Of a DNA stretch of 64,000 nucleotides, positions 1 to 63,845 are shown in pieces. The position numbers and the translations under genes are program-made. Source of the DNA: Acidimicrobiia bacterium (lineage in GTDB: Bacteria > Actinomycetota > Acidimicrobiia > Acidimicrobiales > SKKL01); NCBI GenBank assembly GCA_016649895.1, contig JAENWR010000005.1, positions 1 to 64,000 on the forward strand, read 5' to 3'. The stretch's first letter is position 1, and each line of letters opens with the position of its first letter. The notes below the pieces were generated by a model, which saw nothing but the letters and a program-made list of their open reading frames with translations, was not told the origin of the DNA and searched no databases.

Positions 1-326
1 CATATCTAGGTACTACCACCCCAGCCGACAGATCGCGAGCTTCTGACCAGGACAAACGCGCTGGTCACAGGGCTATTTGGAAGAAATTCCCAAGCGGGTC
101 CAAGATCACCTCAACGGAATAGCCCGGAAACTCCCGCTAGGCCCGTGAAGAGGCCAGATCTTCGGACGAATCGCGAGATTTCGGACGGCTTGCCTTGAGA
201 AGGGACTGTTGGGGCCAGCTCGGGCTTGGGCGTCTCGTCCCGCGCCGGCAGGACGGGGAGTCTCATGCAAGTCCAGTCGAGCCGAAGAGAATCTACGTAT
301 GACCAAGAAATCGGTACGCTTGCGGG

Positions 327-554
327 GTGGAGCGCATCACCGTGTCGTTGGATGCCGAACAAGCGGCGACCCTGCGCGCCTTGGCGGCTGCTCATGACAC
401 CACCGTGAGCGCCGTCGTGAGAGCCGCCGCCGACGCCCTCGCCGCCGAGCACACCGCCGCAGGCTCGATCCGGCGTCGAATCCGACCCGACGCTCGAGGC
501 GGTGCGCGCCCCGGGGCCGGTCGGCCTCGAAGTGACGCCGGCAGGGCGGCCTGA
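327..554 (+). CDS. Ribbon-helix-helix (CopG/Arc-like) DNA-binding protein, putative antitoxin
   Basis: N-terminus MERITVSLDAEQAATLRALAAAHDTTVSAVVRAA is a beta-strand/helix-helix pattern typical of RHH antitoxins. Its stop overlaps the next start (ATGA at 552-556). Confidence 0.5.
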   Translation: MERITVSLDAEQAATLRALAAAHDTTVSAVVRAAADALAAEHTAAGSIRRRIRPDARGGARPGAGRPRSDAGRAA

Positions 555-1318
555 TGAGCGGCTTCGTCACACTCCGGCTCGACGGGTCGGTCACTGTCGC
601 CAACTTCGCCAAGGCCACCTCGAACTTCGCCAAGGTGCTCACCGAGCTGTCGAAAGAACGGGACGCCAGCTCCAAGATCGAATGGGTCATCAGCGGCTTG
701 GAGTACGGCAGCGCCATCCTCACGGCCGCGCCGCAACCGTTCTCCGACGACGACGCCGAGCTGGTCCCGACCCTCGTTTCGGACTTCATCACCGTCGCTC
801 GTCAGGTGAGCGAACACCCAGCGCACCTCGACCGGCCGGTGCTACGCCTCGTGCGCAGTATCAGTGAGGTCGCCGTCGACCAGGACCACGAGGTGGTTTT
901 CGAGACGGCCGACGAGGAGGTGGCGTTCGTTCACCGCAACCAGGGAGGCCCCACCCCGGTTCGGCCGAAGCCGGTTCTCGGGACGATTCGAGGGCGCGTT
1001 CAGACACTGCAACAGCGCAAGGGGCTTCGATTCGTTCTCTACGACCTGGTCCACGACAAGGCCGTCACCTGCTACCTCACGGAGGACCAGGAAGGCTTGA
1101 TGCGCGACGCGTGGGGCCGGATGGTCGAAGTCACCGGCATGATCACGCGCGACGAGATCACCGATCGCCCGAGGGCGATCCGTCGCGTCGCCGACGTCCA
1201 GGTGCTCGAGGACGGCGCCGATGCCTTCGCCTTCCGACGTGCTCGCGGCGCGGTCACCCCCGCCCCGGGGTCGCCGGCCTCCGAGGTGTTGATCCGCCGA
1301 GTTCGCGATGCCGTCTGA
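554..1318 (+). CDS. Hypothetical 254-aa protein, middle gene of RHH-X-PIN operon
   Basis: Long ORF with non-repetitive composition and no recognised motif. It is translationally coupled on both sides: ATGA overlap with the upstream RHH gene and an 11-nt overlap with the downstream PIN gene. Confidence 0.45.
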   Translation: MSGFVTLRLDGSVTVANFAKATSNFAKVLTELSKERDASSKIEWVISGLEYGSAILTAAPQPFSDDDAELVPTLVSDFITVARQVSEHPAHLDRPVLRLVRSISEVAVDQDHEVVFETADEEVAFVHRNQGGPTPVRPKPVLGTIRGRVQTLQQRKGLRFVLYDLVHDKAVTCYLTEDQEGLMRDAWGRMVEVTGMITRDEITDRPRAIRRVADVQVLEDGADAFAFRRARGAVTPAPGSPASEVLIRRVRDAV

Positions 1319-1796
1319 CCAACCGATGGAGTACCTCGACGCGAACGTGCTCCTCGCCTACATCAGCGGTGAGGCCGACCGAGTCGACATCGTCGAGCAA
1401 CTGCTCAGCGAGGCGGCTGAGGGGAAGCGGACCCTGGTGACGTCGACGCTGTCGATCGTCGAGGTGGCCTACGCAGTCAGCGACCTCGGGATCGATCTGA
1501 GCGAGGAGAGCGAGCAGGCGATCGATGAGCTGTGGGCGCCACCCTCTCCCATCCTCCTCATCGAGCCTTCCGTAGCGGTGATGCGTCGCGCTCGCGGGTT
1601 CCTGCGGCAGGCGAAGAGCGCTGGGCGGAAGCTGAAGCCCGCCGACTCGATCCACCTTGCATCGGCAGCGATGACCGCAGCCGTCGGCACGCTGCTCACC
1701 TACGAGACGGAGAACACCAGGACCTACTGGGCCGAGGTCACGGCGCTCGTCGTCGCCGAGCCCGACATCGACCAGCGACGCTTGCCCTGGGCATAG
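1308..1796 (+). CDS. PIN-domain ribonuclease (VapC-like toxin)
   Basis: N-terminal YLDANVLLAYI, acidic residues spaced as in the PIN fold (D..E..D), ~160 aa. Confidence 0.7.
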   Translation: MPSDQPMEYLDANVLLAYISGEADRVDIVEQLLSEAAEGKRTLVTSTLSIVEVAYAVSDLGIDLSEESEQAIDELWAPPSPILLIEPSVAVMRRARGFLRQAKSAGRKLKPADSIHLASAAMTAAVGTLLTYETENTRTYWAEVTALVVAEPDIDQRRLPWA

Positions 1797-1981
1797 AGCA
1801 ACCCCTCCGCGGCGCGAACTCTGCGCCAAGCTGAGAGCGTTTGACGGCTTCCGTCGTGCCACATTCGTGCCACAACGGGATCATTTTCGGTCGTACTGGA
1901 CGGACGGGCTGGTACAGGAAAACCGCCTCTGACCTGCTGGTTTATGCATTTGGCCAGGTCAGCAAATCGGGCCTGATCGAT

Positions 1982-2044
1982 TTCCCAAGCTGAGAATGCG
2001 GGTTCGATTCCCGTCATCCGCTCTCCACATCGGTCCAGGTCAGC
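1982..2044 (+). repeat. tRNA 3'-end-like direct repeat, copy 1 (att-like scar)
   Basis: TTCCCAAGCTGAGAATGCGGGTTCGATTCCCGTCATCCGCTC contains the T-arm GCGGG-TTCGATT-CCCGT and an acceptor 3' strand. The anticodon-loop-like TTCCCAA would give anticodon CCC. No complementary 5' acceptor strand is present upstream, so it is a fragment and not a gene. The flank TCCACATCGGTCCAGGTCAGC is shared with copy 3. Confidence 0.6.
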
Positions 2045-2259
2045 CCGAAACGTCCGCCGATCAAGCCGACAGCACCGGCCCATGCTCGCCACACGCATCC
2101 CTGTCGCCGAGCTGGTTCGGGCAGCGCCAGGCCTGGCCGTCGTACTCGTGAACCGGGCATTGCCCGGTCCCCGATGCGAGCCGCTCTCGGATGTCGTCGA
2201 TGGCGCGTTTCTTGCGCTTACTCGGGGCGCGGTCCGAGGCGAGCTGAGCGAAGGCGAGG

Positions 2260-3098
2260 TCAAGGTGCTGATCGCTCCAGCGGATCCATCGGGTGATGAG
2301 CGCCAGCGGGTCGCCCGCCGTGGCGGGGTTCGACGAGGTACGCAGCTACATCGACAACGAAGTCCGGATCGCCGAGGTGAGCAGCGAGGCGCGCTCGGAA
2401 CTCGCCGGGGTGAAGCTCGGCGTGGAACAGGTAGTGCGCTGCGGCCTGCCCCAAGAGTTCGTCATCGAGGGCGAGCTGGCGGTGCGCGACGTCGAGGTCG
2501 TTGAGGTCGCGTCCCTTGCTCCGTTGCGCGAGCGCTCGGAACTTCGTAGCGATGAGCTCGACCGGCTGGAAGGTGAGGAGGTCGGAGCCTCCGCTCCACC
2601 AGTCGCTGTGCGCTTCCAACCGTCGCCGATCGAGGGGTGGACGGCGGGGACCTCGTCAAGGTTGATCTCGATCTTGAGGCGCCGTTCCTGCCCGCGATGG
2701 TCGACGTATCCGAGGTGTTCGGTGAGCCGAGTTCGGGTTGTCTTCGCGTTCTTGGCGACGCTGAGCTCGACGGACTCGGCGACCTCGCGCAACCCGATGC
2801 GCAGCGTCCGCATGTCGTTGGCTTCGATCGAGAGGTCGTAGGCGACATAGTCGAGGTCTTCGCTGAAGCGGAGCGCCTTCGGAAGGAACAGCTTGTGGAG
2901 GCAGGTGCCACCTCGCCAGGCGAGTCGGTCGCGCAACGTCGGGTGCTCCGAGACCTCGATTGCGACCCTCGTCATGATGAGGTCCTGCTCGACCTGGTCG
3001 AAGTCCGCCCAGGGATGGTCGACCTGCCAGGCGCCAAGGGCATCGGCGGAGATCACAACTCGTCCGCCTCCACAGTCGCATTGACGATGACACCCCAA
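2260..3098 (-). pseudogene. AbiEii/AbiGii-family nucleotidyltransferase toxin (type IV TA), frameshifted
   Basis: The N-terminal ORF (3098 down to ~2600) has GGTCLHKLFLPKALRFSEDLDYV (NTase hG[GS]...D.D motif). The C-terminal ORF (2619 down to 2260, other frame) has ATKFRALAQRSKGRDLNDL (AbiEii C-terminal motif). A 1-nt frameshift separates the two halves. Confidence 0.65.
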
Positions 3099-3898
3099 CG
3101 CTCGTCGTGAGGCCCCAGACGGGCGCCCTCGGCGGCGAGCAACGAGGGTCGGCCCTGATCGGGCTGCGCAAGCTCCCGAAGCGCGGCGAGGTCGAGATCG
3201 TTGCGCACGAGCTCGAGGAGCCAGCCGAGACGCCGGGCATCGGGTCGTGATCGCCTCCCGGCAAGGTCGGCAAGCCGCTGGCCGTCGAGATCGGGGAGCT
3301 CGGCAAGGATCGTCGCTACGTTTGACAACCCGCTGCCGACTCTGGGCCGGCTGGCGAGGTCGACCGCGCAGAGGTCGGGGGTGGCGACCTTCATCATCGT
3401 TCGGGGTCCAGCGACTCGACGGACGGCATCAACGTCGATCTTGGCCGACGTGTGGAACCGCAGTCGCACACGTTCGATGTCGCGGTCCCGCACCCTCCGG
3501 TCGGTGACGACCTGGAACTCCTGGGGAGCCTGGTGAGCAGCGCCCCACCATTGCGCGGCCGATGCGAAGGCGATGTAGTAGTCGACGCCGAGCTGGCGCA
3601 TCATCGGGTCGATGAAGTGGGTGGCGGGGGTGACACCCCAGGATCGGTGCTCGGGGGGCACGACGACGTAGAGGCCTCGCACCGGGGAGAACAGCCTCTT
3701 GCGGTCGACTGCGTACTTCGCCGCGCCGTACACGGCGTTCGTCGTCGCGCCCGTCCGCTCCACGAGGTCAGCCACGGTGAACGAGCTCCTGCCCTCGGAC
3801 AGCAGCTCGTCCCACAGGGCGGTAAAATTCACCTGACTCACGAATCTTAGGATAAACCGGAGAAACAGCCTGAGTGCCGAAACTAGGGATTTCTCCAA
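3053..3898 (-). CDS. AbiEi-family antitoxin / transcriptional regulator (type IV TA)
   Basis: FTVADLVERTG...NAVYGAAKYAVDRKRLFSPVRGLYVVVP matches the AbiEi N-terminal wHTH pattern. Lies upstream of and overlapping the AbiEii gene. The true start is probably an internal GTG near 3835. Confidence 0.65.
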   Translation of the reverse strand: MEKSLVSALRLFLRFILRFVSQVNFTALWDELLSEGRSSFTVADLVERTGATTNAVYGAAKYAVDRKRLFSPVRGLYVVVPPEHRSWGVTPATHFIDPMMRQLGVDYYIAFASAAQWWGAAHQAPQEFQVVTDRRVRDRDIERVRLRFHTSAKIDVDAVRRVAGPRTMMKVATPDLCAVDLASRPRVGSGLSNVATILAELPDLDGQRLADLAGRRSRPDARRLGWLLELVRNDLDLAALRELAQPDQGRPSLLAAEGARLGPHDERWGVIVNATVEADEL

Positions 3899-4084
3899 GA
3901 TTCAGACATCGTACCTCCCGAGTTCAGGCCCCTCTTCAGGAAGCGCCTTGAGCGCGCTGTCGGCGTGGCACCAGCGCCTGCTCCACACCGAGCTGGTCCT
4001 CCCGCGATCGCGTGACGATCGGAACGCTGCACTTATTGCGTTTACTGGTAGGGTCAGCGTCTCGACGAGTATGGAGGTTCCGGC

Positions 4085-4519
4085 GTGAGCGACGTGCGAG
4101 AGGTTCGGCCCGGAGCGGTCGGCCCCGAGGAGCTCCAGGCGTTCGAGCGCGTGCTGGAAGGCATGTCGCCGATCGGCCAGACGCCCCGTCTCATCGGACC
4201 GGGGGGAGTGGAGATCGTGCTGCCGGAAGGGATCTACGCCCTGCTCGTCTCGATCGTCGACAACCTCAAGGCGGGCAACGGGGTCTCGGTCATCCCCATC
4301 CATGCCGAGCTCACCACCGTCGAGGCGGCTCAGCTGTTGAACGTGAGCCGTCCCTTCCTCATCAAACAGATCGAGGCGGGTGTGCTTGCCCATCACATGG
4401 TCGGGACGCATCGACGCTTGCGGCTGGCAGATGTGCTGGCCTATCGCGACCGGATCGACGCCGAGGCCGACGAGGCGCTCGATGCCATGGTGGCTGAGGC
4501 TGAGGACCTCGGTCTCTAG
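4085..4519 (+). CDS. Excisionase-family helix-turn-helix DNA-binding protein (putative antitoxin)
   Basis: LTTVEAAQLLNVSRPFLIKQIEAGVLAHHMVGTHRRLRLADVLAY resembles Xis/MerR-type HTH. Sits 20 nt upstream of the PIN fragment. Confidence 0.55.
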   Translation: MSDVREVRPGAVGPEELQAFERVLEGMSPIGQTPRLIGPGGVEIVLPEGIYALLVSIVDNLKAGNGVSVIPIHAELTTVEAAQLLNVSRPFLIKQIEAGVLAHHMVGTHRRLRLADVLAYRDRIDAEADEALDAMVAEAEDLGL

Positions 4520-4539
4520 GACAAGAGCTGCCCGGTCTC

Positions 4540-4770
4540 GTGGCGGGGTACGTCGTCGTCCTCGACGCGAACGTCCTGTACGGGATCGACGTCACCGACT
4601 TGATGGCCACGATGGCCAGGCAACGCTTGTTCCGCCCCCACTGGTCGCCAGAGATCCTCGACGAGGTGACCCGCAACCTCGGCCCGGCGGCCCGATCTCG
4701 AGCCCGCGGCCATCGGGCGTCGCATCGACCACCTGAACCGTGCGTTGCCCTTACGCGAGACCACGGTTGA
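4540..4770 (+). pseudogene. PIN-domain protein, N-terminal fragment (truncated/diverged C-terminus)
   Basis: N-terminus VVLDANVLYGIDVTDLMA is a PIN start. After ~45 aa the reading degenerates, and it ends ~50 bp before tRNA-like repeat copy 2. Confidence 0.4.
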
Positions 4771-4819
4771 CCTGGGGAAACACACGAACCCTCAGGTCAG
4801 GGAACTCCGTCCGCTGAGC

Positions 4820-4861
4820 TTCCCAAGCTGAGAATGCGGGTTCGATTCCCGTCATCCGCTC
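4820..4861 (+). repeat. tRNA 3'-end-like direct repeat, copy 2 (att-like scar)
   Basis: Identical 42-nt core TTCCCAAGCTGAGAATGCGGGTTCGATTCCCGTCATCCGCTC. Flanks differ from copies 1 and 3. Confidence 0.6.
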
Positions 4862-4966
4862 CCTGCCCTCGACGGGAAGTTGGTCGGCGCGCCGACAACG
4901 CGCACCGTGACCCAAAGGCGTCCAGGGCCCGTCGTATCGATATACCGGGCAGCCGTCCTCGCTTTT

Positions 4967-4998
4967 GTCCGGTGTCCGGTAGCTGCCGGACACCGGAC
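4967..4998. promoter_or_regulatory. Perfect 13-bp inverted repeat GTCCGGTGTCCGG-N6-CCGGACACCGGAC, candidate operator
   Basis: Perfect palindrome ending 17 nt upstream of the GTG start (5016) of the downstream HTH-like gene. Confidence 0.4.
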
Positions 4999-5015
4999 GA
5001 GGTACCCTGACTGGC

Positions 5016-6104
5016 GTGCCACGACTTCGCACTCCACCGGACCGGCAACACGAGGCCGCCATCGAGGAACTGGTCACCCTCGCGTCCAGCATGCGGGGTC
5101 TCCACATCGTGCGGTCCGCCGAGGACCACGTCAACGTCACCGTGGGGCAGCACAGCTGGCCGGCCAAAGTCATCGCCAGGGATGCCGTGTCACTACGTGA
5201 TGCCCAGCACCTCGTCGAGAACGAGGCCCGGGGTTCGAAGATCGTCGTGGCCAACCAGGTCTCCACGGAAGCGAAGGACTTCCTCGCCGAGCGGAACGAG
5301 GCGAACCGCACCTTCGGGTGGAGCTGGCTCGATCGGCGAGGCGAGCTGGTGCTCAACCATCCGAAGGCCTCGGGGGTGATCCAGTTCGATCTCGATGCGA
5401 TCGACCGCAACCCGGCCCGACCTGGTGGCTGGGGGCTCGCCTCTCCCCGATCCAGCGGCGCCATCCGAGGGCGCGCCGGCATGAGCTACGCCGCTGCGGT
5501 CCTCCTCGACCCGACCGAACGACCATCGATCCGCGCCGTCGCCGAACAGGCGGGGATGTCCCACGGTGCGATCGGCGAGGCCGCCAAACTCATGCGAGAC
5601 GCCGGGCTCATCCGCCGCAATGGCGAACCCGAGATCCCCGACCTCTTCGATGCGCTCGCCGATGCCTGGGGGCCGACGCTCATCGCACCAGTCGACACCG
5701 TGCCAACCCGCGAGGACGCCGACCGATTGCGTGCCAACGTCGACGACCTCAGCGACCTCGGGTGGGGGCTGGGCGGCGACGAGGCCGCACTGTCCTGGGG
5801 TGCGCCCATGTTCTTGAGCGGGTTCCGGCCCTGGATCTGGGTACCGACCGAGGCCGACGCCCGCCGGGCCACCCGCGCCCTCCAACCAGCGAAGTGGGAC
5901 GACAGCCGAGTGGTGTTCGCGGTCGCTCCCACCTTGCTCGTCTCCCGGACTCGTGTCCCGTCACCGGGGATCGCCGAACCCGCGTTCATCCCCACCGTCC
6001 ACCCGCTCTTCCTCGCGCTCGACCTCGCCCGCGACCCGGGGCGCGGCCGGGAGATCCTCGACGGATGGAACCCCAAGCAACCGGAGATCCACCGTGTTTG
6101 GTGA
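5016..6104 (+). CDS. Hypothetical protein with predicted HTH segment (putative regulator/antitoxin)
   Basis: 362-aa ORF. The segment SIRAVAEQAGMSHGAIGEAAKLMRDAGLIRRNG is HTH-like. Its stop overlaps the start of the downstream NTase gene. Confidence 0.45.
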   Translation: MPRLRTPPDRQHEAAIEELVTLASSMRGLHIVRSAEDHVNVTVGQHSWPAKVIARDAVSLRDAQHLVENEARGSKIVVANQVSTEAKDFLAERNEANRTFGWSWLDRRGELVLNHPKASGVIQFDLDAIDRNPARPGGWGLASPRSSGAIRGRAGMSYAAAVLLDPTERPSIRAVAEQAGMSHGAIGEAAKLMRDAGLIRRNGEPEIPDLFDALADAWGPTLIAPVDTVPTREDADRLRANVDDLSDLGWGLGGDEAALSWGAPMFLSGFRPWIWVPTEADARRATRALQPAKWDDSRVVFAVAPTLLVSRTRVPSPGIAEPAFIPTVHPLFLALDLARDPGRGREILDGWNPKQPEIHRVW

Positions 6105-6840
6105 CCCACCGCTCATCATGCTTCCCGATCACAGCCGGTCGCTGCTGGAGGCAACCCGGACGGTGCTCGCGACTGCCGACCTTCCACCTGTTGTGCTCAT
6201 CGGTGGCCTCGCGGTCACCATGCGAACCAGCGCGATGGGCGCCGCCCATCGCGCGACAGTCGACATCGACCTGGTGACCATCGACGCTGAGCCCGAGACC
6301 ATCGAGGTGCTCGCCGACGCGCACGGATCGAGCCGGCAACCCCTGATGATCGACGGCATCAAGGTCGACCTCATCCCGACCAGCCCGATCACCGACGACG
6401 ACCTCGACGGCCTGGATGACGGAGACCGGCTGTTCGTGGCCGGGCACCGCTGGGCCTTCGAGGGCGGCACACCCTCGCGCCTCGCCATCTCCGCAGCGGA
6501 ACCGCTCCACGCCACCGTCGCCACCACCCACGCCCTCGTCGCCACCAAGTGCCATGCCATCGGCTACCCCACCAGCCGGCGCCGAGCCACCAAACACGCC
6601 TCCGACCTGCTCGACCTCTTCCGCCTCGTCGAGCTCTACAACGTCAGAAGCGAGCTCAGTCGCGACCTCCGTGCAGGACCGCCCGGCCTCGCCCGAATCA
6701 TCGCCGACATCGTCCACTACGAGGTCATCGCCAAGATCGACACCGCGGCACGACAGATGTCGTCCATGGCTCCCGCTCCGATCACCGCCAACAGCGTGCT
6801 CGATGTCGTCGGCGACTTCGTCGACGAGCTCCGAGGCTGA
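6094..6840 (+). CDS. Nucleotidyltransferase-fold protein (AbiEii/MNT-like), putative toxin
   Basis: LIGGLAVTMRT...HRATVDIDLVT fits NTase hG[GS]x9-13Dh[DE]h. C-terminal ATKHASDLLDLFRL resembles the AbiEii-like K..D..DL motif. Alternative ATG start at 6118. Confidence 0.5.
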   Translation: MFGDPPLIMLPDHSRSLLEATRTVLATADLPPVVLIGGLAVTMRTSAMGAAHRATVDIDLVTIDAEPETIEVLADAHGSSRQPLMIDGIKVDLIPTSPITDDDLDGLDDGDRLFVAGHRWAFEGGTPSRLAISAAEPLHATVATTHALVATKCHAIGYPTSRRRATKHASDLLDLFRLVELYNVRSELSRDLRAGPPGLARIIADIVHYEVIAKIDTAARQMSSMAPAPITANSVLDVVGDFVDELRG

Positions 6841-6897
6841 TCGTCGAGAAGCTGAGTACCCGGCCACGAGGCGGCGTGACCCTAGCTGTACGACACC

Positions 6898-6961
6898 TTC
6901 CCAAGCTGAGAATGCGGGTTCGATTTCGTGTCACCCGCTCTCCGCATCGGCCCAGGTCAGC
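6898..6961 (+). repeat. tRNA 3'-end-like direct repeat, copy 3 (diverged)
   Basis: TTCCCAAGCTGAGAATGCGGGTTCGATT is identical, then diverged (TCGTGTCACCCGCTC). The flank TCCGCATCGGCCCAGGTCAGC resembles the copy-1 flank. Confidence 0.55.
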
Positions 6962-7452
6962 GGCGGTTTTCTGGCTTCCGCCACCTCGTCGCAGTCCTGG
7001 GGTCGAAGATACCCCGCCTCTGCGTCGATGTCCCACCGGTAGCACTCCGCCTCATAGACCCCACCGTCGCTGAGCGGATCCTGCGACTGGTCCGTTCTCA
7101 CCCGGATGACCTGCCCGTCAATCTCGTAGGTGTACTTCACCAGAGCGCCCTCGTCCGTCGGGGACGAGACCTCAAGCCGGGCGGACTCGCCAGCAGCGAA
7201 CGCTGCTGCTGCGCACGGCACGCTCCCATATCCGTGGACGAGCCACGCTCTCGTCCTGATCGAGGACGGCAAAGTTGCCCAGATCGGGAACCTCCACACC
7301 CCATGACAGTCCAGGTCCGCCTGCACGGTTGCTGCAATGGCCCTGGACACAGAGGGCCAGGTCGGGGATCTGCCAGGACAGCACGGACGCCCGGGCACCC
7401 AACCCCATCGCGACGCCTCCAGGGAACCTTCTCCGTTGCAGGCCCAGGTCAT
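6931..7452 (-). CDS. Hypothetical protein
   Basis: 173-aa ORF with no recognised motif. It overlaps repeat copy 3. Confidence 0.25.
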   Translation of the reverse strand: MTWACNGEGSLEASRWGWVPGRPCCPGRSPTWPSVSRAIAATVQADLDCHGVWRFPIWATLPSSIRTRAWLVHGYGSVPCAAAAFAAGESARLEVSSPTDEGALVKYTYEIDGQVIRVRTDQSQDPLSDGGVYEAECYRWDIDAEAGYLRPQDCDEVAEARKPPLTWADAESG

Positions 7453-7477
7453 GCCCGGTTTCCTGCGACCTGGGCCT

Positions 7478-8695
7478 TCACCGTTCAGCGCCCGGAATCG
7501 GGGGCGTGACCCTAACGTGACCTGACGGATCGACCGGCGTACCGTCGCCCAGCTCCTGCACTACAAGGGGCAGGAGGTTCAAGAGGACGTCCTCACGAGC
7601 AGCGAAGCCTCCGTCTCGCTCGACGATCAGGTCGAGCCCCACAAGTTCGTTGAGGTCTCGGGTGAGGGTCTTCGGCCCACAGGCGGCGTAGGCGGCGGCG
7701 AGATCCGGCGTGAGCCGAGGGAGATCCTTCTTGGCGACGACGCCGCGACCCAGGAGGGTGTTGGCGATCAGGCTTCGCCGTTGGCGCATCTCCACGTCGC
7801 GGCCGGTCACCTGTTCGGCGACGTGCTCGCGCCAGGTGAGCCGGACCTGGCGGTCGTAGACGAACTGGAGCTGGCCGGTCAGTCCGGACACGAACCCTTC
7901 AGCGCAGTACTCCAGGAACCGGCTGACATCGCCTCCAGACTCACTGGCGTAGCGGAGTTGGCGGTAGTAGTCGTCGCGGGTGTCGTTGCAGTGGTTGGAG
8001 ATGAGGTGGGCGGCCGATGTCGGCACACCCGAGGTCACGAGTACGAGGTACTCGCAGAGACGAGCGGTGCGGCCGTTGCCGTCGCCGAACGGATGGATCC
8101 ACGCGAGGTAGAGGTGCGCCATCGAGGCGCGGATGACCGCGGTCGGCAGGCGCATGTGCCGCTCGCCGGCGAAGCCCGAGCCGTTCAGCCAGTCACACAT
8201 CCGCGCGAGGAGGGCTTCGCACTCAGCAGCGTCCGGCGCGCGGTAGGGCCCGACGACCACGGGATCGGTTCGAAGCTGTCCCGGCATCACATGGACGTCG
8301 AGGTCCTCCAGACCCTCGAGGACCATCCGGTTGAAGTCGGCGATCAGCTCCGGAGTGAGCACTGGGGAGTGCCCGTCTCTGATCTCCCCGAGCACCCAGT
8401 TGTACGCGGTGATGACGTTCTCCACTTCTCGCACCTGATACTCGGGAGAGGCGGAGACGGTGCGGCGCTCGACGATCGCCCGCACTGTGTCCTCAGAGAG
8501 GGTGTTGCCCTCGATCGCCGTGGTCGCGTGCGCTCCCTTGGCGAGGCTCACGATGTGCAGCTGGTCGGCGTACGTCTTCGGCAGGGGTACGCGAGCGAGG
8601 TGGCTGCACTTTGATCTCGCCTCGCCCAGGAGCATCCAGAACGACGCGCTCATCCGCTTGAGGTCGACGTCGAACGTGATCCAGGGATGCTCCAC
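7478..8695 (-). CDS. Fic/Doc-family protein with N-terminal inhibitory motif (class II-like)
   Basis: Fic motif HPFGDGNGRTARL. An upstream TTAIEGN fits the inhibitory [ST]xxxE[GN] helix. C-terminal wHTH-like extension. Confidence 0.8.
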   Translation of the reverse strand: MEHPWITFDVDLKRMSASFWMLLGEARSKCSHLARVPLPKTYADQLHIVSLAKGAHATTAIEGNTLSEDTVRAIVERRTVSASPEYQVREVENVITAYNWVLGEIRDGHSPVLTPELIADFNRMVLEGLEDLDVHVMPGQLRTDPVVVGPYRAPDAAECEALLARMCDWLNGSGFAGERHMRLPTAVIRASMAHLYLAWIHPFGDGNGRTARLCEYLVLVTSGVPTSAAHLISNHCNDTRDDYYRQLRYASESGGDVSRFLEYCAEGFVSGLTGQLQFVYDRQVRLTWREHVAEQVTGRDVEMRQRRSLIANTLLGRGVVAKKDLPRLTPDLAAAYAACGPKTLTRDLNELVGLDLIVERDGGFAAREDVLLNLLPLVVQELGDGTPVDPSGHVRVTPPIPGAER

Positions 8696-8914
8696 GTCGG
8701 GATCCTAACTTGTCCGTGATTCTGTCCACGTTGCTAGGCCCTCTGAACAGCGTGAATACGAACTACAGATATATGACTTGTCCATCTACTCGTCCGAGGA
8801 TGTGTCCCCAGACTTGTCTCGGGTTGAGTCCAGGAGCTGGTCGAGGGCCTCGACCTGGTCCTCGTTGGCCCAAGGGTGGTTCGCCCACCATGCGTTGACG
8901 GCGTCAGGTGCAAT

Positions 8915-9071
8915 CACAGTACGTCGGGCTCCACGGTTGCATTGACGATCACGCTCCATCGTTCGCCGAGGTCGCCTCGACGTGACCCCCTCGGTGCGAG
9001 CAGCGTCGGCTGACCATGGTCTGGCTGCGCCGCATCGTGTAGTTCGCCGAGATCGAGGTCGGGCCGGCGGC
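8915..9071 (-). pseudogene. AbiEi-family antitoxin, C-terminal remnant
   Basis: Translation ...DLDLGELHDAAQPDHGQPTLLAPRGSRRGDLGERWSVIVNATVEPDVL* aligns residue-for-residue with the C-terminus of AbiEi 3053..3898 (…DLDLAALRELAQPDQGRPSLL…DERWGVIVNATVEADEL*). An in-frame TAG lies ~52 codons upstream, and no start codon is present. Confidence 0.5.
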
Positions 9072-9113
9072 CCGGCGTGGTGCGCTACTCGACGAGTAGA
9101 GCCAATCCTCGAT

Positions 9114-9650
9114 TCAGCGCATCGCCTCTTCGACGAGTGCCTTCAGCTCGTGGTCGGGGCTGACATGGCGCTTGTACAGCGGGCTCATCGGAGTCCTCGC
9201 CAGCCGCACCGAGAGGGTGACCAGATCTGCGTCGGCGCCGCGCTTCTCGCGGTGGACGTTGGCGAGGAAGGTCAGCTCGGTCATGACGCCCAGGAGGCTG
9301 CGACTGATCGTCTTGGCGTAGTGGCCGACGCCCATCGAGCGGATCTCGTCGTCGACGAACCTCGGATCGACGCCGTGCGCGCCGAGCACCTGTCGCAGCT
9401 CGTCGGGAAACCGTCGAGCCAGCGTGGCGGCTGGCGCCAAGGGCACGAACACCGGGAGCAGCGTGCACTCGTTCACGAGTAGCGCCACCTGGGGCTTCCA
9501 GAACACCGCGGTGGCGTACCAGTTGCCGAGCGCCGTAGTCGGCTCGACGGGCTCGGCCACCGGTTGCTTCACCCGGTCGAGGAGCTTCTTCGTTGCGTGG
9601 AGGGTGAAGCCGGGATGCGCGCCCACGGATAGAGCCTCCCACGGTGTCAA
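9114..9650 (-). CDS. Hypothetical protein (possibly the decayed N-terminal part of the AbiEi-like gene)
   Basis: 178-aa ORF. Weak LG..Y.A.A resemblance to the AbiEi middle region. Its frame differs from the remnant at 8915..9071. Confidence 0.3.
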   Translation of the reverse strand: MTPWEALSVGAHPGFTLHATKKLLDRVKQPVAEPVEPTTALGNWYATAVFWKPQVALLVNECTLLPVFVPLAPAATLARRFPDELRQVLGAHGVDPRFVDDEIRSMGVGHYAKTISRSLLGVMTELTFLANVHREKRGADADLVTLSVRLARTPMSPLYKRHVSPDHELKALVEEAMR

Positions 9651-28671: not shown

Positions 28672-29268
28672 GTGCCCGTCGACCGACGCGACCTTCGCCG
28701 CCGCCTCTTCAACCTCGCGGCCCAGCAGGGCGGCTACTTCACAGCGGCACAGGCCAGGAGCCTCGGTTACTCCTACCAGGCGCAGGCCCACCACGTCGGT
28801 GCCAGCAACTGGCACCGGAGCGACCGCGGACTCTTCCGCCTGGCCGAGTGGGTGCCCGGGCTGCACGATGACCTGATTCGCTGGACCCTCTGGTCCAAGG
28901 ACCGTGCGGCGGTCTCCCACGAGACGGGACTGGCCGTGCATGGCATCGGTGAGTTCGAGTCTCCTCGGATCCACCTCACGGTCCCGCCCGGGTTCTCGAT
29001 GCGCGACGACGCCGTCGTCATCCACCATGCCGAACTCGCCGATGGCGACATCGTCGAACAGGCCGGGTTCCGCACGACCTCCGTGCTCCGATCGCTCGTC
29101 GACGTGGCCGCCGCCGGCGCGGATGAGGAACAACTGGCGAGGGCGATCAAGGAAGCGACCGACGACGGGCATCTCACCCTCCGCCAACTACGTGCCCGTG
29201 CCGAGCAGGTCGACGTCAAGGGTGCCCTCTACATCGAGCGAGCCATCCAGCGGATCGCGGCGGCGTGA
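28672..29268 (+). CDS. AbiEi-like antitoxin-domain protein (solo, no AbiEii partner)
   Basis: GYFTAAQARSLGYS...GLFRLAEWVP matches the AbiEi N-terminal wHTH signature. Preceded by a low-GC promoter-like stretch. Confidence 0.55.
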   Translation: MPVDRRDLRRRLFNLAAQQGGYFTAAQARSLGYSYQAQAHHVGASNWHRSDRGLFRLAEWVPGLHDDLIRWTLWSKDRAAVSHETGLAVHGIGEFESPRIHLTVPPGFSMRDDAVVIHHAELADGDIVEQAGFRTTSVLRSLVDVAAAGADEEQLARAIKEATDDGHLTLRQLRARAEQVDVKGALYIERAIQRIAAA

Positions 29269-60774: not shown

Positions 60775-63156
60775 TCAGACCCCCTTCGCCATGTTGGCGA
60801 AGCGGGTGTAGTGGTCGAGGAACGCGAGCCGCGTGATGCCGGTGGGACCGTTGCGGTGCTTCGACACGATGATCTCGGCGGTGCCCCGATCGGCCGAGTC
60901 GGCGTTGTAGATCTCGTCGCGGTACAGGAACATCACCACGTCGGCGTCCTGCTCGATCGAGCCGGACTCGCGCAGGTCGGCCAGCACCGGCCGCTTGTCC
61001 TGGCGCATCTCGAGGCCGCGCGACAGCTGCGAGAGCGCCACCACCGGCGTCTCGAGCTCGCGGGCCAGGATCTTGAGGCCGCGGCTGATCTCGGATACCT
61101 CGACCTGGCGGTTCTCGGCCGATCCTCGACCGGTCATGAGCTGCAGGTAGTCGACGACCACGAGACCGAGGTCGCCGACCCGGCTCTTGAGGCGGCGGGC
61201 CTTCGACCGCATCTCCATGACCGTGACGTTGGGGTTGTCGTCGATCCACAGCGGTGCCTCGGCGAGTCGGCCGGTGGCGTGGGCGATCTTGTTCCAGTCG
61301 GCTTCGACGAGCTTGCCGTTGCGCACCCGTGAGGAGTCGACCCGAGCCTCGGAGCAGACGATGCGCTGGGTGAGCTCGAGGCGACTCATCTCGAGCCCGA
61401 AGAACAACACCGGCTTCTGGCTCTCGAGCGCGGCGTGGGTGGCCATGCCGAGGGCGAAGGCGGTGTTGTGGGTGGGGATGAGCGACTCGCCTGCCAGGTA
61501 GAGGTGCGACGGTGCATCGACGGTGATGCAGCCGACGGGAACGGTGCTCGCCGGGAGGATGGCGACGATGGCGCGGACGCCGTCGGCGCCAGGTGCGTGG
61601 TCGGAGGCGGCGCCAACCGACGCCGCCTTGCGCCCGACCCGGAACGGCAGCTCGTTCGGTTGCCACCGGAACGACCATGCCTCGCGCTCGTCGCCGTCGG
61701 CCATCGAGTCGATGTGGGGCCGGATCGGCCCCGGCCGGCCGCCGAGGGAGCAGACGAGCTCACGCACCTGGCAGAGCACCTCGAGGTGGGCGAGCGCGAT
61801 CTCGACATCGGCGCCGCGATCGCCGTCGGCCACGTCGACGATCCGGCCATCGGTGTCCATGAAGCCCTGCAGCAGCGCCAACCGCTGCTTGTGGGAACTG
61901 CGGAGGTACTGAACCGGAACGAGGGGCGGAGATCCTCCGAGGAGCCCGAGGCGCTGCAACTCGCGGGCGAGGACCCGACCGCCGGTGCCATACCCAGCCA
62001 GCTCGAACTCGGCGCGGAAGTGGGCGGTGTCGTGGGCGCCGGTGAGGTCGTGAGGGGTGGTGCCGCACCCGCCCGCCAGCCAGCACCCGAGCACGTAGGG
62101 GTCGACCGCCAGCTCCGCCTCGGGCAGATCGAGGGCATCGGCGACCGGAACGCTCCAGCGCGCCGAGCCGGCGAGCTCCACTCCCCCATCGAGCAGGTGC
62201 TGGGTGGTGCGCACCACGAGGTGCCCGGCCGGATCGTCAGGGGCAGCGTGGTCGATGACGGCCCACTGGTGCTCGGCGTCGGCCACCAGCGCAGACCCGT
62301 CGTCGAACACCACCTCGTAGCAGGTGCGGTCCTCGTAGATCGGTGATCGGTAGGTGACGGTGGCGGGCTGGCCCCGCTCATCGAGCACGTGGCTGCCAAC
62401 CCGCAGGTCGGCCATGGTGGTCCACCCCGACGGCGTGGGGATGGGTGTGTCGAGGGCGAGGGCCTTCCCCATGGCCGGACGAGCGCCGATGACGTAGAGG
62501 GCGTTGGGCTGCAGACCGGAGAGGAGCTCGTCGAGGTCGTGGTAGCCGGTGGGCACGCCGGTGATGGACTCGCCCCGCTCGTAGAGGGCCTCGAGTCGGT
62601 CGAGGTTGTCGGCGAGGAGCTCACGTATGGGTGCCATCGAATCGGTGACCCGCCGTTGGGCGACGTCGAACACGAGCTGCTCGGCGTGGTCGATGACCTT
62701 GGTGACGTCGTCGGGGATGTCGTAGCCCAGCTCGGCGATGTCGCCGGCCACACCGATGAGCCGGCGCAGGAGTGCGTGCTCTTCGATGATGCGGGCATAG
62801 CGCCCGGCGTTGGAGATGGCCGGGGTGGCCGCCTGCATCGAGACGAGCTTGGCCGGACCGCCGATGGCATCGAGCAGATCGGCCCGCTGCAGCTCGGCCG
62901 AGACCGTCACCGGGTCGACTGGCTCTCCCGCCGAGAACAACGAGGTGATGGCGTCGAAGATGTGGCCGTGCGACGGCTTGTAGAAGTCGTCGACACGCAC
63001 GACCTCGACCGCATCGGCGATCGCCTCGCGCGAGAGGAGCATCGCTCCGAGGAGCGACTCCTCGACGTCGAGGTTGTGCGGGGGGGTCCGGGCGCCGGAG
63101 CGGCGCGGGGAGAGCTCGTCTGCGGGAAGCGCCATGAGATGGCCATCCTGAGGCAC
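60775..63156 (-). CDS. dnaB: Replicative DNA helicase DnaB interrupted by a 333-aa intein
   Basis: N-extein ends GARPAMGK (Walker A). C-extein resumes TAFALGMATHAAL...; RecA-like motifs follow. The intein spans ALALDT...SLIPTHN. Confidence 0.9.
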   Translation of the reverse strand: MPQDGHLMALPADELSPRRSGARTPPHNLDVEESLLGAMLLSREAIADAVEVVRVDDFYKPSHGHIFDAITSLFSAGEPVDPVTVSAELQRADLLDAIGGPAKLVSMQAATPAISNAGRYARIIEEHALLRRLIGVAGDIAELGYDIPDDVTKVIDHAEQLVFDVAQRRVTDSMAPIRELLADNLDRLEALYERGESITGVPTGYHDLDELLSGLQPNALYVIGARPAMGKALALDTPIPTPSGWTTMADLRVGSHVLDERGQPATVTYRSPIYEDRTCYEVVFDDGSALVADAEHQWAVIDHAAPDDPAGHLVVRTTQHLLDGGVELAGSARWSVPVADALDLPEAELAVDPYVLGCWLAGGCGTTPHDLTGAHDTAHFRAEFELAGYGTGGRVLARELQRLGLLGGSPPLVPVQYLRSSHKQRLALLQGFMDTDGRIVDVADGDRGADVEIALAHLEVLCQVRELVCSLGGRPGPIRPHIDSMADGDEREAWSFRWQPNELPFRVGRKAASVGAASDHAPGADGVRAIVAILPASTVPVGCITVDAPSHLYLAGESLIPTHNTAFALGMATHAALESQKPVLFFGLEMSRLELTQRIVCSEARVDSSRVRNGKLVEADWNKIAHATGRLAEAPLWIDDNPNVTVMEMRSKARRLKSRVGDLGLVVVDYLQLMTGRGSAENRQVEVSEISRGLKILARELETPVVALSQLSRGLEMRQDKRPVLADLRESGSIEQDADVVMFLYRDEIYNADSADRGTAEIIVSKHRNGPTGITRLAFLDHYTRFANMAKGV
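61465..62463 (-). mobile_element. DnaB intein (class-3-like: Ala1, Trp-Cys-Thr triad) with LAGLIDADG homing-endonuclease motifs
   Basis: The first residue is Ala. Block B has H-Q-W (Trp at B:12). Block F has VPVGCITVD (Cys). Block G is IPTHN then +1 Thr. LAGLIDADG-like motifs LGCWLAGGCG and LLQGFMDTDGRI. Confidence 0.75.
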
Positions 63157-63398
63157 GGGGGCTGTGGATCGCTAGAGCCGACAGCCGGTGGACGACGACG
63201 GCGAAGCTGTGGACGAACCCCCCACTGTTGTGGACGACCGAGCCAGAGCGGAGGATGCCGCCGGGGCCCGCCCGTGTGGGGGCGCGCGGGGTGAGGGGAA
63301 GGTGCCCACGGCGCTAGGGAGGACGGCGCCGCTTCTGTGGGGGGAGGGGCGTGCGGGACCGGGCGACGCGATGCCGACCCGATCCCGCGGAGCCGCTG

Positions 63399-63845
63399 CT
63401 ACAGCGGCACGACCTCGATGGTGATGGGGAACTCGACCTCGGCGTGGAGCTTGGCCGGCACGCTGTGGGTGCCGGTGGTCTTGATGGGCTCCTCGAGGTG
63501 CAGCTGACGACGCTCGATCTCGATGCCGGTCTGGGCGGTGATGGCGTCGGCGACGTCGGCACTGGTGACCGACCCGAACAGCTTGCCCTCGCCCCCGGCC
63601 TTGGCCGAGATGGTGATGACCGTCGGCACCAGGGTGCTGGCGATCTCCTGGGCCGCGCTGCGCAGCGCCGAGTCCTTCACGTCACGGGAGCGACGCATGG
63701 CGCCAGCCTGCTTCTCGGCCCTGGGGCTCGACACGAACGCCAGCCCCTTGGGGATGAGGAAGTTGCGGCCGTAGCCGTCGGCGACCTCGACGATGTCGCC
63801 CTTCTTGCCGAGGCGCTCGATGTCGGAACGCAGGATCAGCTTCAT
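63399..63845 (-). CDS. rplI: 50S ribosomal protein L9
   Basis: MKLILRSDIERLGKKGDIVEVADGYGRNFLIPKGLA is the canonical L9 N-terminus. Confidence 0.9.
   Translation of the reverse strand: MKLILRSDIERLGKKGDIVEVADGYGRNFLIPKGLAFVSSPRAEKQAGAMRRSRDVKDSALRSAAQEIASTLVPTVITISAKAGGEGKLFGSVTSADVADAITAQTGIEIERRQLHLEEPIKTTGTHSVPAKLHAEVEFPITIEVVPL

Follow-up and report, generated by a model that had tools for sequence, protein, structure and literature searches.

What does it mean when the 3' half of a tRNA gene recurs three times within 5 kb of a bacterial chromosome? The question is raised by the left end of a 64,000-nt stretch from an Acidimicrobiia bacterium (assembly GCA_016649895.1, contig JAENWR010000005.1, positions 1 to 64,000; hereafter the window). 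There, three direct copies of a 42-nt sequence delimit segments that carry toxin-antitoxin (TA) modules. We argue that the repeats are probably attachment-site (att) scars at a tRNA-Gly(CCC) gene, and that the DNA between them is a tandem array of integrase-less, partly decayed remnants of integrative elements. The array sits inside a low-GC islet of TA and defence genes of about 9.5 kb.

The repeats themselves are easily defined. Repeat finding and a search allowing 3 mismatches both give exactly three copies of TTCCCAAGCTGAGAATGCGGGTTCGATT in the window, all on the + strand, starting at 1982, 4820 and 6898. The 3-mismatch search found no match to the 42-mer in 100 dinucleotide shuffles. Copies 1 (1982-2023, +) and 2 (4820-4861, +) are identical at 42 of 42 positions. 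Copy 3 (6898-6940, +) equals the tRNA over its first 28 nt and then has about 4 changes, including a 1-nt insertion; its T-stem and acceptor part reads TTTCGTGTCACCCGCTC instead of TTCCCGTCATCCGCTC, with one extra base. The next 21 nt are common to copies 1 and 3, TCC(A/G)CATCGG(T/C)CCAGGTCAGC, and were recovered as repeat families D4 and D11. Searches with blastn-short and nhmmer, using the tRNA and each junction as query, returned no further significant copies in the window. A tRNA-like alignment at 1815-1872, whose score was reached or exceeded in 1 of 300 shuffles, was considered as another fragment and rejected; the paired direct repeats of the arm beside copy 1, described below, explain that stretch better.

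The origin of the repeat is seen in other genomes. A scan of one genome per species found the exact 42-mer at 56 places, labelled Actinomycetota save for a few differently labelled bins. Among the lineages are Acidimicrobiia, Iamiaceae, Ilumatobacteraceae, Pseudonocardiaceae, Nocardioidaceae and Propionibacteriales. At 51 of the 56 places the 42-mer is part of an intact tRNA-Gly(CCC) gene, and at the other 5 it is a fragment. In the 51 intact genes it makes up nt 31-72 of the tRNA, opening with the first base of the anticodon loop and closing with the first C of CCA. It can be divided into the anticodon loop TTCCCAA, the 3' side of the anticodon stem GCTGA, the variable loop GAAT, the T arm GCGGG/TTCGATT/CCCGT, the 3' strand of the acceptor CATCCGC, the discriminator T and that first C. 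By its identity to these 51 genes the repeat is the 3' part of a real tRNA.

None of the copies is a tRNA gene. When the whole tRNA is compared with the window by blastn, the matches end at nt 72-73 and begin at tRNA position 28-31; since they start only there, the three copies must be 3' fragments. Copies 1 and 2 are both perfect over nt 31-72, and at copy 2 the identity extends over 4817-4862 (nt 28-73). The 5' half is absent from every copy. A functional tRNA gene has a full cloverleaf and both acceptor strands, and nothing of that kind is present: ARAGORN finds 0 tRNA genes in the window and Rfam has no family there, either at its gathering score or at E<=10. Fragments that begin at the anticodon loop and reach the 3' end of the tRNA are end fragments of class A in the terms of PMC4383910. 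The first-pass annotation had read the repeats as three direct copies of a Gly-like tRNA piece with anticodon CCC, a T arm and the 3' acceptor strand, lacking the 5' acceptor strand and with an extended flank shared by copies 1 and 3. All of this holds, with two copies perfect and the third degenerate after 28 nt.

Why should such fragments be there? The DNA to the left of them suggests an answer. The window junctions (J1, J2 and J3, at copies 1, 2 and 3) were aligned with the five fragment junctions from other genomes, L005, L020, L024, L027 and L046 (alignment A1). An inverted pair, TGACCTGG...CCAGGTCAG, ends 19-20 nt before the core in J1 (1930-1963), J2 (4768-4800), L020 and L027. Further out, about 110-125 nt upstream of the att core, J1, L005, L020 and L046 have two direct repeats one helical turn apart. 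These read GTGCCACA at 1856 and 1867 in J1, GTGCCATT twice in L005 and GTGACCCT twice in L020; they are identical within each element and different between elements. Judged by sequence, they appear to behave as integrase arm-type sites that co-evolve with their integrase, and the CCAGGTCA and GTGCCAnn motifs are predicted integrase-binding sites.

The left, element-side (P-type) arm of J1 spans 1856-1981 (+). It has its direct repeats at 1856-1863 and 1867-1874 and its inverted pair at 1930-1936 (TGACCTG) and 1954-1963 (CCAGGTCAGC) on the + strand, aligned with the fragment junctions of L005, L020, L027 and L046. By blastn J1 is 89% identical to the L027 junction over 89 nt, and J2 is 85% identical to the L020 junction over 95 nt. 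The J2 arm (4768-4819, +) is truncated: it has the inverted pair TGACCTGG at 4768-4775 and CAGGTCAG at 4793-4800 without the upstream direct repeats. Copy 3 has no left arm of the element type.

To the right of the core many loci have a hairpin, CCCAGGTCA...GACCTGGG, of which J1 has the 5' half only and J3 a longer variant. The right flank of copy 1 (2024-2044, +) reads TCCACATCGGTCCAGGTCAGC. In relatives a CCAGGTCA hairpin comes after tRNA-Gly or its fragments; copy 1 is followed by the 5' half of that hairpin, without the 3' half. Over 64 nt the region has 97% identity to L048 and L020. The right flank of copy 3 (6941-7002, +) reads CTCCGCATCGGCCCAGGTCAGC and is extended to a long hairpin, CCCAGG ... 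CCTGGG, with a fold of -29 kcal/mol (z = -2.7). The right-flank motif of J1 and J3 also comes after tRNA-Gly in L015, L048 and L052. The sole complete hairpin in the window, CCAGGTC...GACCTGG at 7441-7476 (+), is of the type that L015, L021 and L007 have immediately behind tRNA-Gly or its fragments. It may be left over from a further junction, or it may serve as the terminator of the Fic gene.

The same arm pattern points to another junction at the very edge of the window. At 44-95 (+), which we call J0, a left-arm inverted pair (TGACCAGG at 44-51 and CTGGTCA at 61-67) is followed by TTCCCAAGC at 87-95. This last sequence is the first 9 nt of the tRNA core, 19 nt beyond the arm; up to about 137 the remainder of the core is either degenerate or deleted. 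The spacing from GGTCA to the core is 19-20 nt, as in J1 and J2. The pattern TGACC-N-GGTCA-N-TTCCCAA matches 44-93, J1 and J2, with 0 matches in 100 shuffles. It must be noted that J0 is not significant by generic local alignment, and that it was accepted solely on this structured pattern of arm plus core. Counting J0, the array extends to the window's left edge and comprises at least four junctions and three segments.

Another line of reasoning comes from what occupies this site elsewhere. An intact copy of the tRNA gene is in the same assembly for L005, L020/L027 and L046; for L024 the scan returned none. In Herbihabitans rhizosphaerae the intact tRNA-Gly(CCC) and its fragment are 9.9 kb apart on one contig. 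The tRNA is directly followed by a Phage_integrase gene, and the interval also has a RepSA initiator (1e-102), a GntR regulator and an FtsK/SpoIIIE-like protein with a weak match (E 3e-4, below the Pfam cut-off). Judged from the annotated genes, this is the gene set of the integrative and conjugative elements of actinomycetes (AICEs) as described in PMC2440964. In a metagenome-assembled genome of Iamiaceae (contig 097) the intact tRNA and its fragment, which lies 8.5 kb downstream, have a Phage_integrase (2.5e-20) and a TrwC relaxase (3.8e-75) between them. Using the Herbihabitans and Iamiaceae integrases as phmmer queries, integrase genes or their remnants were found immediately 3' of the tRNA or of a fragment in L013, L021, L027 and L041; in all, integrases are present at the same tRNA-Gly(CCC) site in L013, L020, L021, L027 and L041. 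At L027 the integrase remnant comes after a fragment, so this locus is a tandem array too. Phages carry the stretch as well. Gordonia phage GAL1 and the Propionibacterium freudenreichii phages Anatole, B22 and B3 have the same 42 nt at 88-93% identity, and in GAL1 and Anatole it is about 140 nt from a gene annotated as a site-specific integrase. IMG/VR had no exact match to the 42-mer, and a plasmid search gave tRNA-like matches only.

The contents of the three segments are a narrow set of genes. With the att copies as bounds the segments are 1.9-2.8 kb long. Segment A, at about 138-1855, has a three-gene operon (327-1796, +) made of a ribbon-helix-helix (RHH) protein at 327-554, a 254-aa protein at 554-1318 and a PIN toxin at 1308-1796. 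The Pfam matches are RHH_1 (3.7e-6) and PIN (2.1e-10); the 254-aa protein has no match in Pfam, PADLOC or NCBIfam. The gene order RHH-X-PIN is an unusual one, and the 254-aa gene overlaps the start of the PIN gene by 11 nt. A metagenome scan returned one relative, of 1.5 kb. L059, which is 91% identical to the window, is common with it over 894-1818 and then continues into different DNA just before the J1 arm.

Segment B (2045-4767) has AbiEii and AbiEi on the - strand followed by HTH_17 and PIN_3 on the + strand, and both of its toxin genes are pseudogenes. The AbiEii nucleotidyltransferase toxin (2260-3098, -; PADLOC 4.8e-30) has a frameshift near 2630, with positions 8-112 of the Pfam profile in the open reading frame at 2346-3098 and positions 130-201 in another frame at 2260-2619. 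Two independent Logan assemblies have the identical sequence, so this is not a local assembly error. The AbiEi antitoxin and regulator (3053-3898, -; Pfam AbiEi_1 7.9e-22, PADLOC AbiEi 1.7e-65) appears intact. The HTH_17 gene (4085-4519, +; Pfam 3.5e-9, NCBIfam TIGR01764 1e-12) encodes a DNA-binding protein of the excisionase family. It is presumed to be the antitoxin of the adjoining PIN_3 toxin; it could conceivably be a remnant of an element excisionase instead. The PIN_3 gene (4540-4770, +) has a frameshift near 4680 in the three-frame translation, and its 3' end is cut where the J2 arm starts. Its Pfam match covers only profile positions 2-60 of 115.

Segment C (4862-6897) has its cargo at 5016-6840 (+): a 362-aa protein at 5016-6104 with a weak MarR-type helix-turn-helix, and an overlapping AbiEii-like nucleotidyltransferase at 6094-6840 (Pfam AbiEii 8.1e-6, PADLOC AbiEii 1.3e-5; gene calls on Logan contig L060). 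At 4967-4998, immediately upstream of this 362-aa gene, there is a near-perfect palindrome, CCGGTGTCCGG-TAGCTG-CCGGACACCGG, a putative operator that may serve autoregulation of this gene pair. No integrase or integrase remnant was found in the window by phmmer or tblastn. In the 64 kb searched there is accordingly no tyrosine integrase between a tRNA gene and any of the fragments.

We argue the following history is the one that accounts best for these observations. The attP site of tyrosine-integrase elements of Actinomycetota (AICEs, relaxase-bearing elements and temperate phages) would carry a copy of tRNA nt 31-72. A crossover in or near the anticodon loop would restore the tRNA at one end of the element, and the old 3' part of the tRNA would be displaced to the far end and kept as a direct repeat. 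If further elements integrated, into the regenerated gene or into a displaced copy, they would stack up in tandem (accretion). Later deletions would remove the genes for integration, excision, replication and transfer (int, xis, rep, tra). TA and abortive-infection modules would survive deletion if their loss is penalised or if they give protection against phage. We infer the position of the crossover, the order of insertion, the reason for TA retention and the presence of an intact tRNA upstream of the window. There are signs of decay: AbiEii is frameshifted, PIN_3 is both frameshifted and cut by the J2 arm, the J1 hairpin is halved, and J0 and J3 are degenerate.

The first-pass annotation had likened the copies to scars left by an integrase and had described the segments as TA-like modules without an integrase. 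The first point now has the company of integrase-bearing elements bounded by the same fragment, with similar flanks, and of phages that carry the stretch. The second survives the phmmer and tblastn searches, with RHH/unknown/PIN, AbiEii/AbiEi, HTH_17/PIN_3 and 362-aa/nucleotidyltransferase modules in the segments. For the origin of the array it had left a choice between decayed integrative elements and repeated site-specific capture of TA cassettes. The former fits better because there are pseudogenes, one arm is truncated, one arm is missing and two junctions are degenerate.

Several observations weigh against our reading and must be considered. Neither an intact tRNA-Gly(CCC) nor a resident integrase is seen in the 64 kb, so the array is not anchored. 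The decay is not monotonic either. If the newest element always lies beside the tRNA, decay should increase to the right, but J0 is leftmost and yet the most decayed, J1 and J2 are perfect, and J3 fits; one has to invoke integration at internal copies, or a single deletion in J0. In copy 3 the first 28 nt have 0 changes and the following 38 nt about 6, which is not what uniform neutral decay predicts. Segment C is without a recognisable element arm on either side. Module A in L059 is not linked to the J1 arm, so cargo and arms have separate histories. Lastly, it is a striking coincidence under random decay that three successive segments were all reduced to TA modules.

One can imagine a scenario where this last point is no coincidence. 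The segments could be active TA/defence mini-elements that have no integrase of their own, keep functional att arms and are moved in trans by an AICE integrase or by that of an integrative and mobilizable element (IME) encoded elsewhere. We consider this unlikely, though it is the best of the alternatives. The J1 and J2 cores are perfect 42-mers, the J1 left arm is full with both types of repeat, and three consecutive small segments carry TA modules only. In three sequencing runs the Logan contigs have their breaks at or close to the junctions. Mobilisation of att-flanked elements without integrases, in cis or in trans, is documented in other bacteria (PMC5704250). However, both toxins of segment B are pseudogenes and one is cut into by the J2 arm. 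The J2 arm has no direct repeats, J3 has no arm, and the right hairpin of J1 is halved. The same cassettes are at none of the five fragment loci of other genomes, and module A is present in a relative (L059) without the arm. The contig breaks carry little weight here, as they are expected from 42-nt repeats assembled with 31-mers. A broader form of the idea is that mini-cassettes with GTGCCAnn repeats and CCAGGTCA pairs are shuffled in trans by AICE or IME integrases, which would make the tRNA-Gly(CCC) site of Acidimicrobiia an integron-like exchangeable array. We consider this unlikely as well. An integron cassette array proper is not what we see, as an integrase is absent and the repeats are pieces of a tRNA, not attC sites.

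Could the repeats have arisen with no integrase at all? Unequal crossing-over or replication slippage could have copied the 3' end of the tRNA with its flank, and TA genes could have been inserted later. It is true that the downstream flank of copies 1 and 3 also follows intact tRNA-Gly genes in relatives. However, all copies begin within 3 nt of the first base of the anticodon loop, which is the classic attP boundary. On the left the flanks are element-specific arms that integrase-bearing elements also have, and the segments between the copies are unrelated to each other. Local duplication is very improbable.

It is harder still to see the fragments as functional RNAs. Characterised relatives of AbiEii/MenT-type nucleotidyltransferases and of PIN toxins act on tRNAs, so transcribed 3' halves might be decoys for, or regulators of, the neighbouring toxins. 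The fragments do adjoin nucleotidyltransferase and PIN toxin genes, and two of them are perfectly conserved. But no acceptor helix is possible because the 5' acceptor strand is absent, no consensus promoters or terminators were found, and there is no Rfam match. The copy beside the only nucleotidyltransferase gene that is apparently intact has a degenerate acceptor part. The same fragment and arms bound integrase and relaxase elements elsewhere, and we regard a regulatory role as far-fetched.

The generic dispersed repeat that the first-pass annotation had named as a possible refutation, a repetitive extragenic palindrome (REP) or miniature inverted-repeat transposable element (MITE) resembling a tRNA by chance, has nothing in its favour except short inverted repeats in the flanks and is refuted: the three copies in 64 kb are clustered within 5 kb and co-oriented, intact tRNA genes account for 51 of the 56 matches elsewhere, and the exact flank motif CCAGGTCAGC occurs outside the array just once.

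Attachment-site scars of decayed elements are not new, and it is worth asking which known system the array resembles most. Cis-mobilizable elements (CIMEs) keep their att sites after the integration and transfer genes are lost, and an accretion model has been proposed for them (PMC5704250, reviewing Pavlovic 2004 and Bellanger 2011). The window is like a CIME array in its direct att repeats, in its segments without integration or transfer genes, and in the stacking at the 3' end of one target gene; a history of integration, decay and further integration fits it. The att sites are in direct orientation, with segment B between two perfect 42-mers and segments A and C each between one perfect and one degenerate copy. 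Only TA and Abi modules are present. As to descent by deletion from an integrative and conjugative element (ICE) or an IME, the arms match integrase-bearing elements and there are pseudogenes and truncated arms, with no residual ICE or IME gene. Unlike the described cases, which are from Firmicutes and usually lie beside a functional ICE, the window shows no functional partner or integrase. It also has at least three remnants in a row, each with TA modules only.

The islands catalogued by Islander consist of an intact tRNA gene and a displaced 3' fragment, and those with an anticodon-centred attP are class A (PMC4383910). The window copies are likewise 3' end fragments, direct and repeated, that run from the anticodon loop to the discriminator and CCA. 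For an island to count, Islander demands that it contain an integrase and that the replicon carry the cognate intact tRNA gene; under these criteria arrays of three or more are rare (4 cases; PMC4383910). The window has neither integrase nor intact tRNA gene, so Islander would filter these segments out.

AICEs arranged in tandem and separated by a 44-bp att have been described, as have AICE remnants (PMC2440964). AICEs share with the array the host phylum, a tRNA 3' end as target and an att of about 42-44 bp, and the bona fide AICE in Herbihabitans, whose att arm motifs are similar, sits at this very tRNA-Gly(CCC) site. In contrast, the window is without int, xis, rep, tra and kor modules, and its arm sequences are closest to those of the Iamiaceae elements with the TrwC relaxase, not to AICE arms. 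Of the pSAM2-type set (int/xis, RepSA/RepAM, TraSA, Kor/GntR) none is in the window and all are in the Herbihabitans element. The actinophages GAL1, Anatole, B22 and B3 have the same 42-nt tRNA stretch beside a site-specific integrase. However, the window has no phage genes, and the phage integrase is to the left of the core, whereas it is to the right in those relatives whose arms match.

The array is only part of the islet. The GC content is 64-67% over 1-9500 and 70-72% just beyond, against 69.9% for the whole window. The rest of the low-GC stretch (7478-9650, -) holds a Fic/SoFic-like gene at 7478-8695 (PADLOC SoFic model, 1e-52), an AbiE-like remnant at 8849-9061 and a DUF6933 gene at 9114-9650 (-) that matches the candidate defence family PDC-S63. 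Since the Fic and DUF6933 genes are in the same low-GC stretch, the islet runs past copy 3 to about 9.5 kb. The remnant at 8849-9061, upstream of the Fic gene, is without a long open reading frame and is 68% identical over 214 nt to 2988-3200, the junction of the AbiEi and AbiEii genes in segment B. By this match it looks like what is left of a second AbiE locus. Beyond about 10 kb the genes are ordinary: carbonic anhydrase, kinase, SpoIIE phosphatase, SNF2 helicase, SDR, PfkB, FtsX and others. A protein with an AbiEi_4 N-terminal domain is encoded at 28672-29268, far from the array in an otherwise ordinary chromosomal context.

At the right end of the window (60775-63845) are ribosomal protein L9 and a 793-aa DnaB with two DnaB_C stretches, which by this arrangement probably contains an intein. 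In L050, L033 and L031 (Acidimicrobiia/Actinomycetota) an intact tRNA-Gly(CCC) is 1-4 kb from the 3' end of dnaB; the window fragments are 54 kb away. We considered whether the whole 54 kb up to dnaB could be one giant island and rejected this, as the genes past about 10 kb are ordinary chromosomal ones with normal GC. L019, which has a homologue of the kinase near its tRNA-Gly, was tried as an empty site and also rejected, its relative orientation being opposite. Two other loci show short duplications at the same tRNA. In L038 (3828-3897) the last 11-18 nt of the tRNA (…GTCATCCGCTC…) are duplicated just downstream of the intact tRNA-Gly(CCC), 55 nt apart, and in L006 the last 11-18 nt (…GTCATCCGCTC…) are duplicated in tandem just 3' of the tRNA at 1582. 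A second kind of event, at the T-stem/acceptor junction of tRNA-Gly(CCC), is suggested by these duplications.

Exact-protein look-ups recovered Logan contigs of 1.5-4.4 kb that are identical to the window. In the Logan assemblies of SRR13106731 and SRR13106733, L001 starts at 112, L002 ends at 2011 and L060 ends at 4832, so the breaks are at or next to J0, J1 and J2. A 42-nt repeat assembled from 31-mers accounts for those at J1 and J2. No repeat is available to account for the one beside J0, which may come from strain variation at that point.

The locus is probably a fresh instance of a well-known and fairly ordinary structure, a tRNA-gene hotspot with accreted CIME-like remnants. A new biological question would arise only if the segments are still mobile. 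Its value is mainly for annotation: it marks 1-9.5 kb as a horizontally acquired TA/defence islet at the tRNA-Gly(CCC) hotspot of an uncultured, Acidimicrobiia-like actinobacterium, and the att copies explain why assemblies break at this islet. It also gives an att-site model for actinobacterial elements, with a 42-bp core, inverted sites of the CCAGGTCA type and element-specific paired direct repeats. It is also a plain case of an element decaying until only addiction and defence modules are left.

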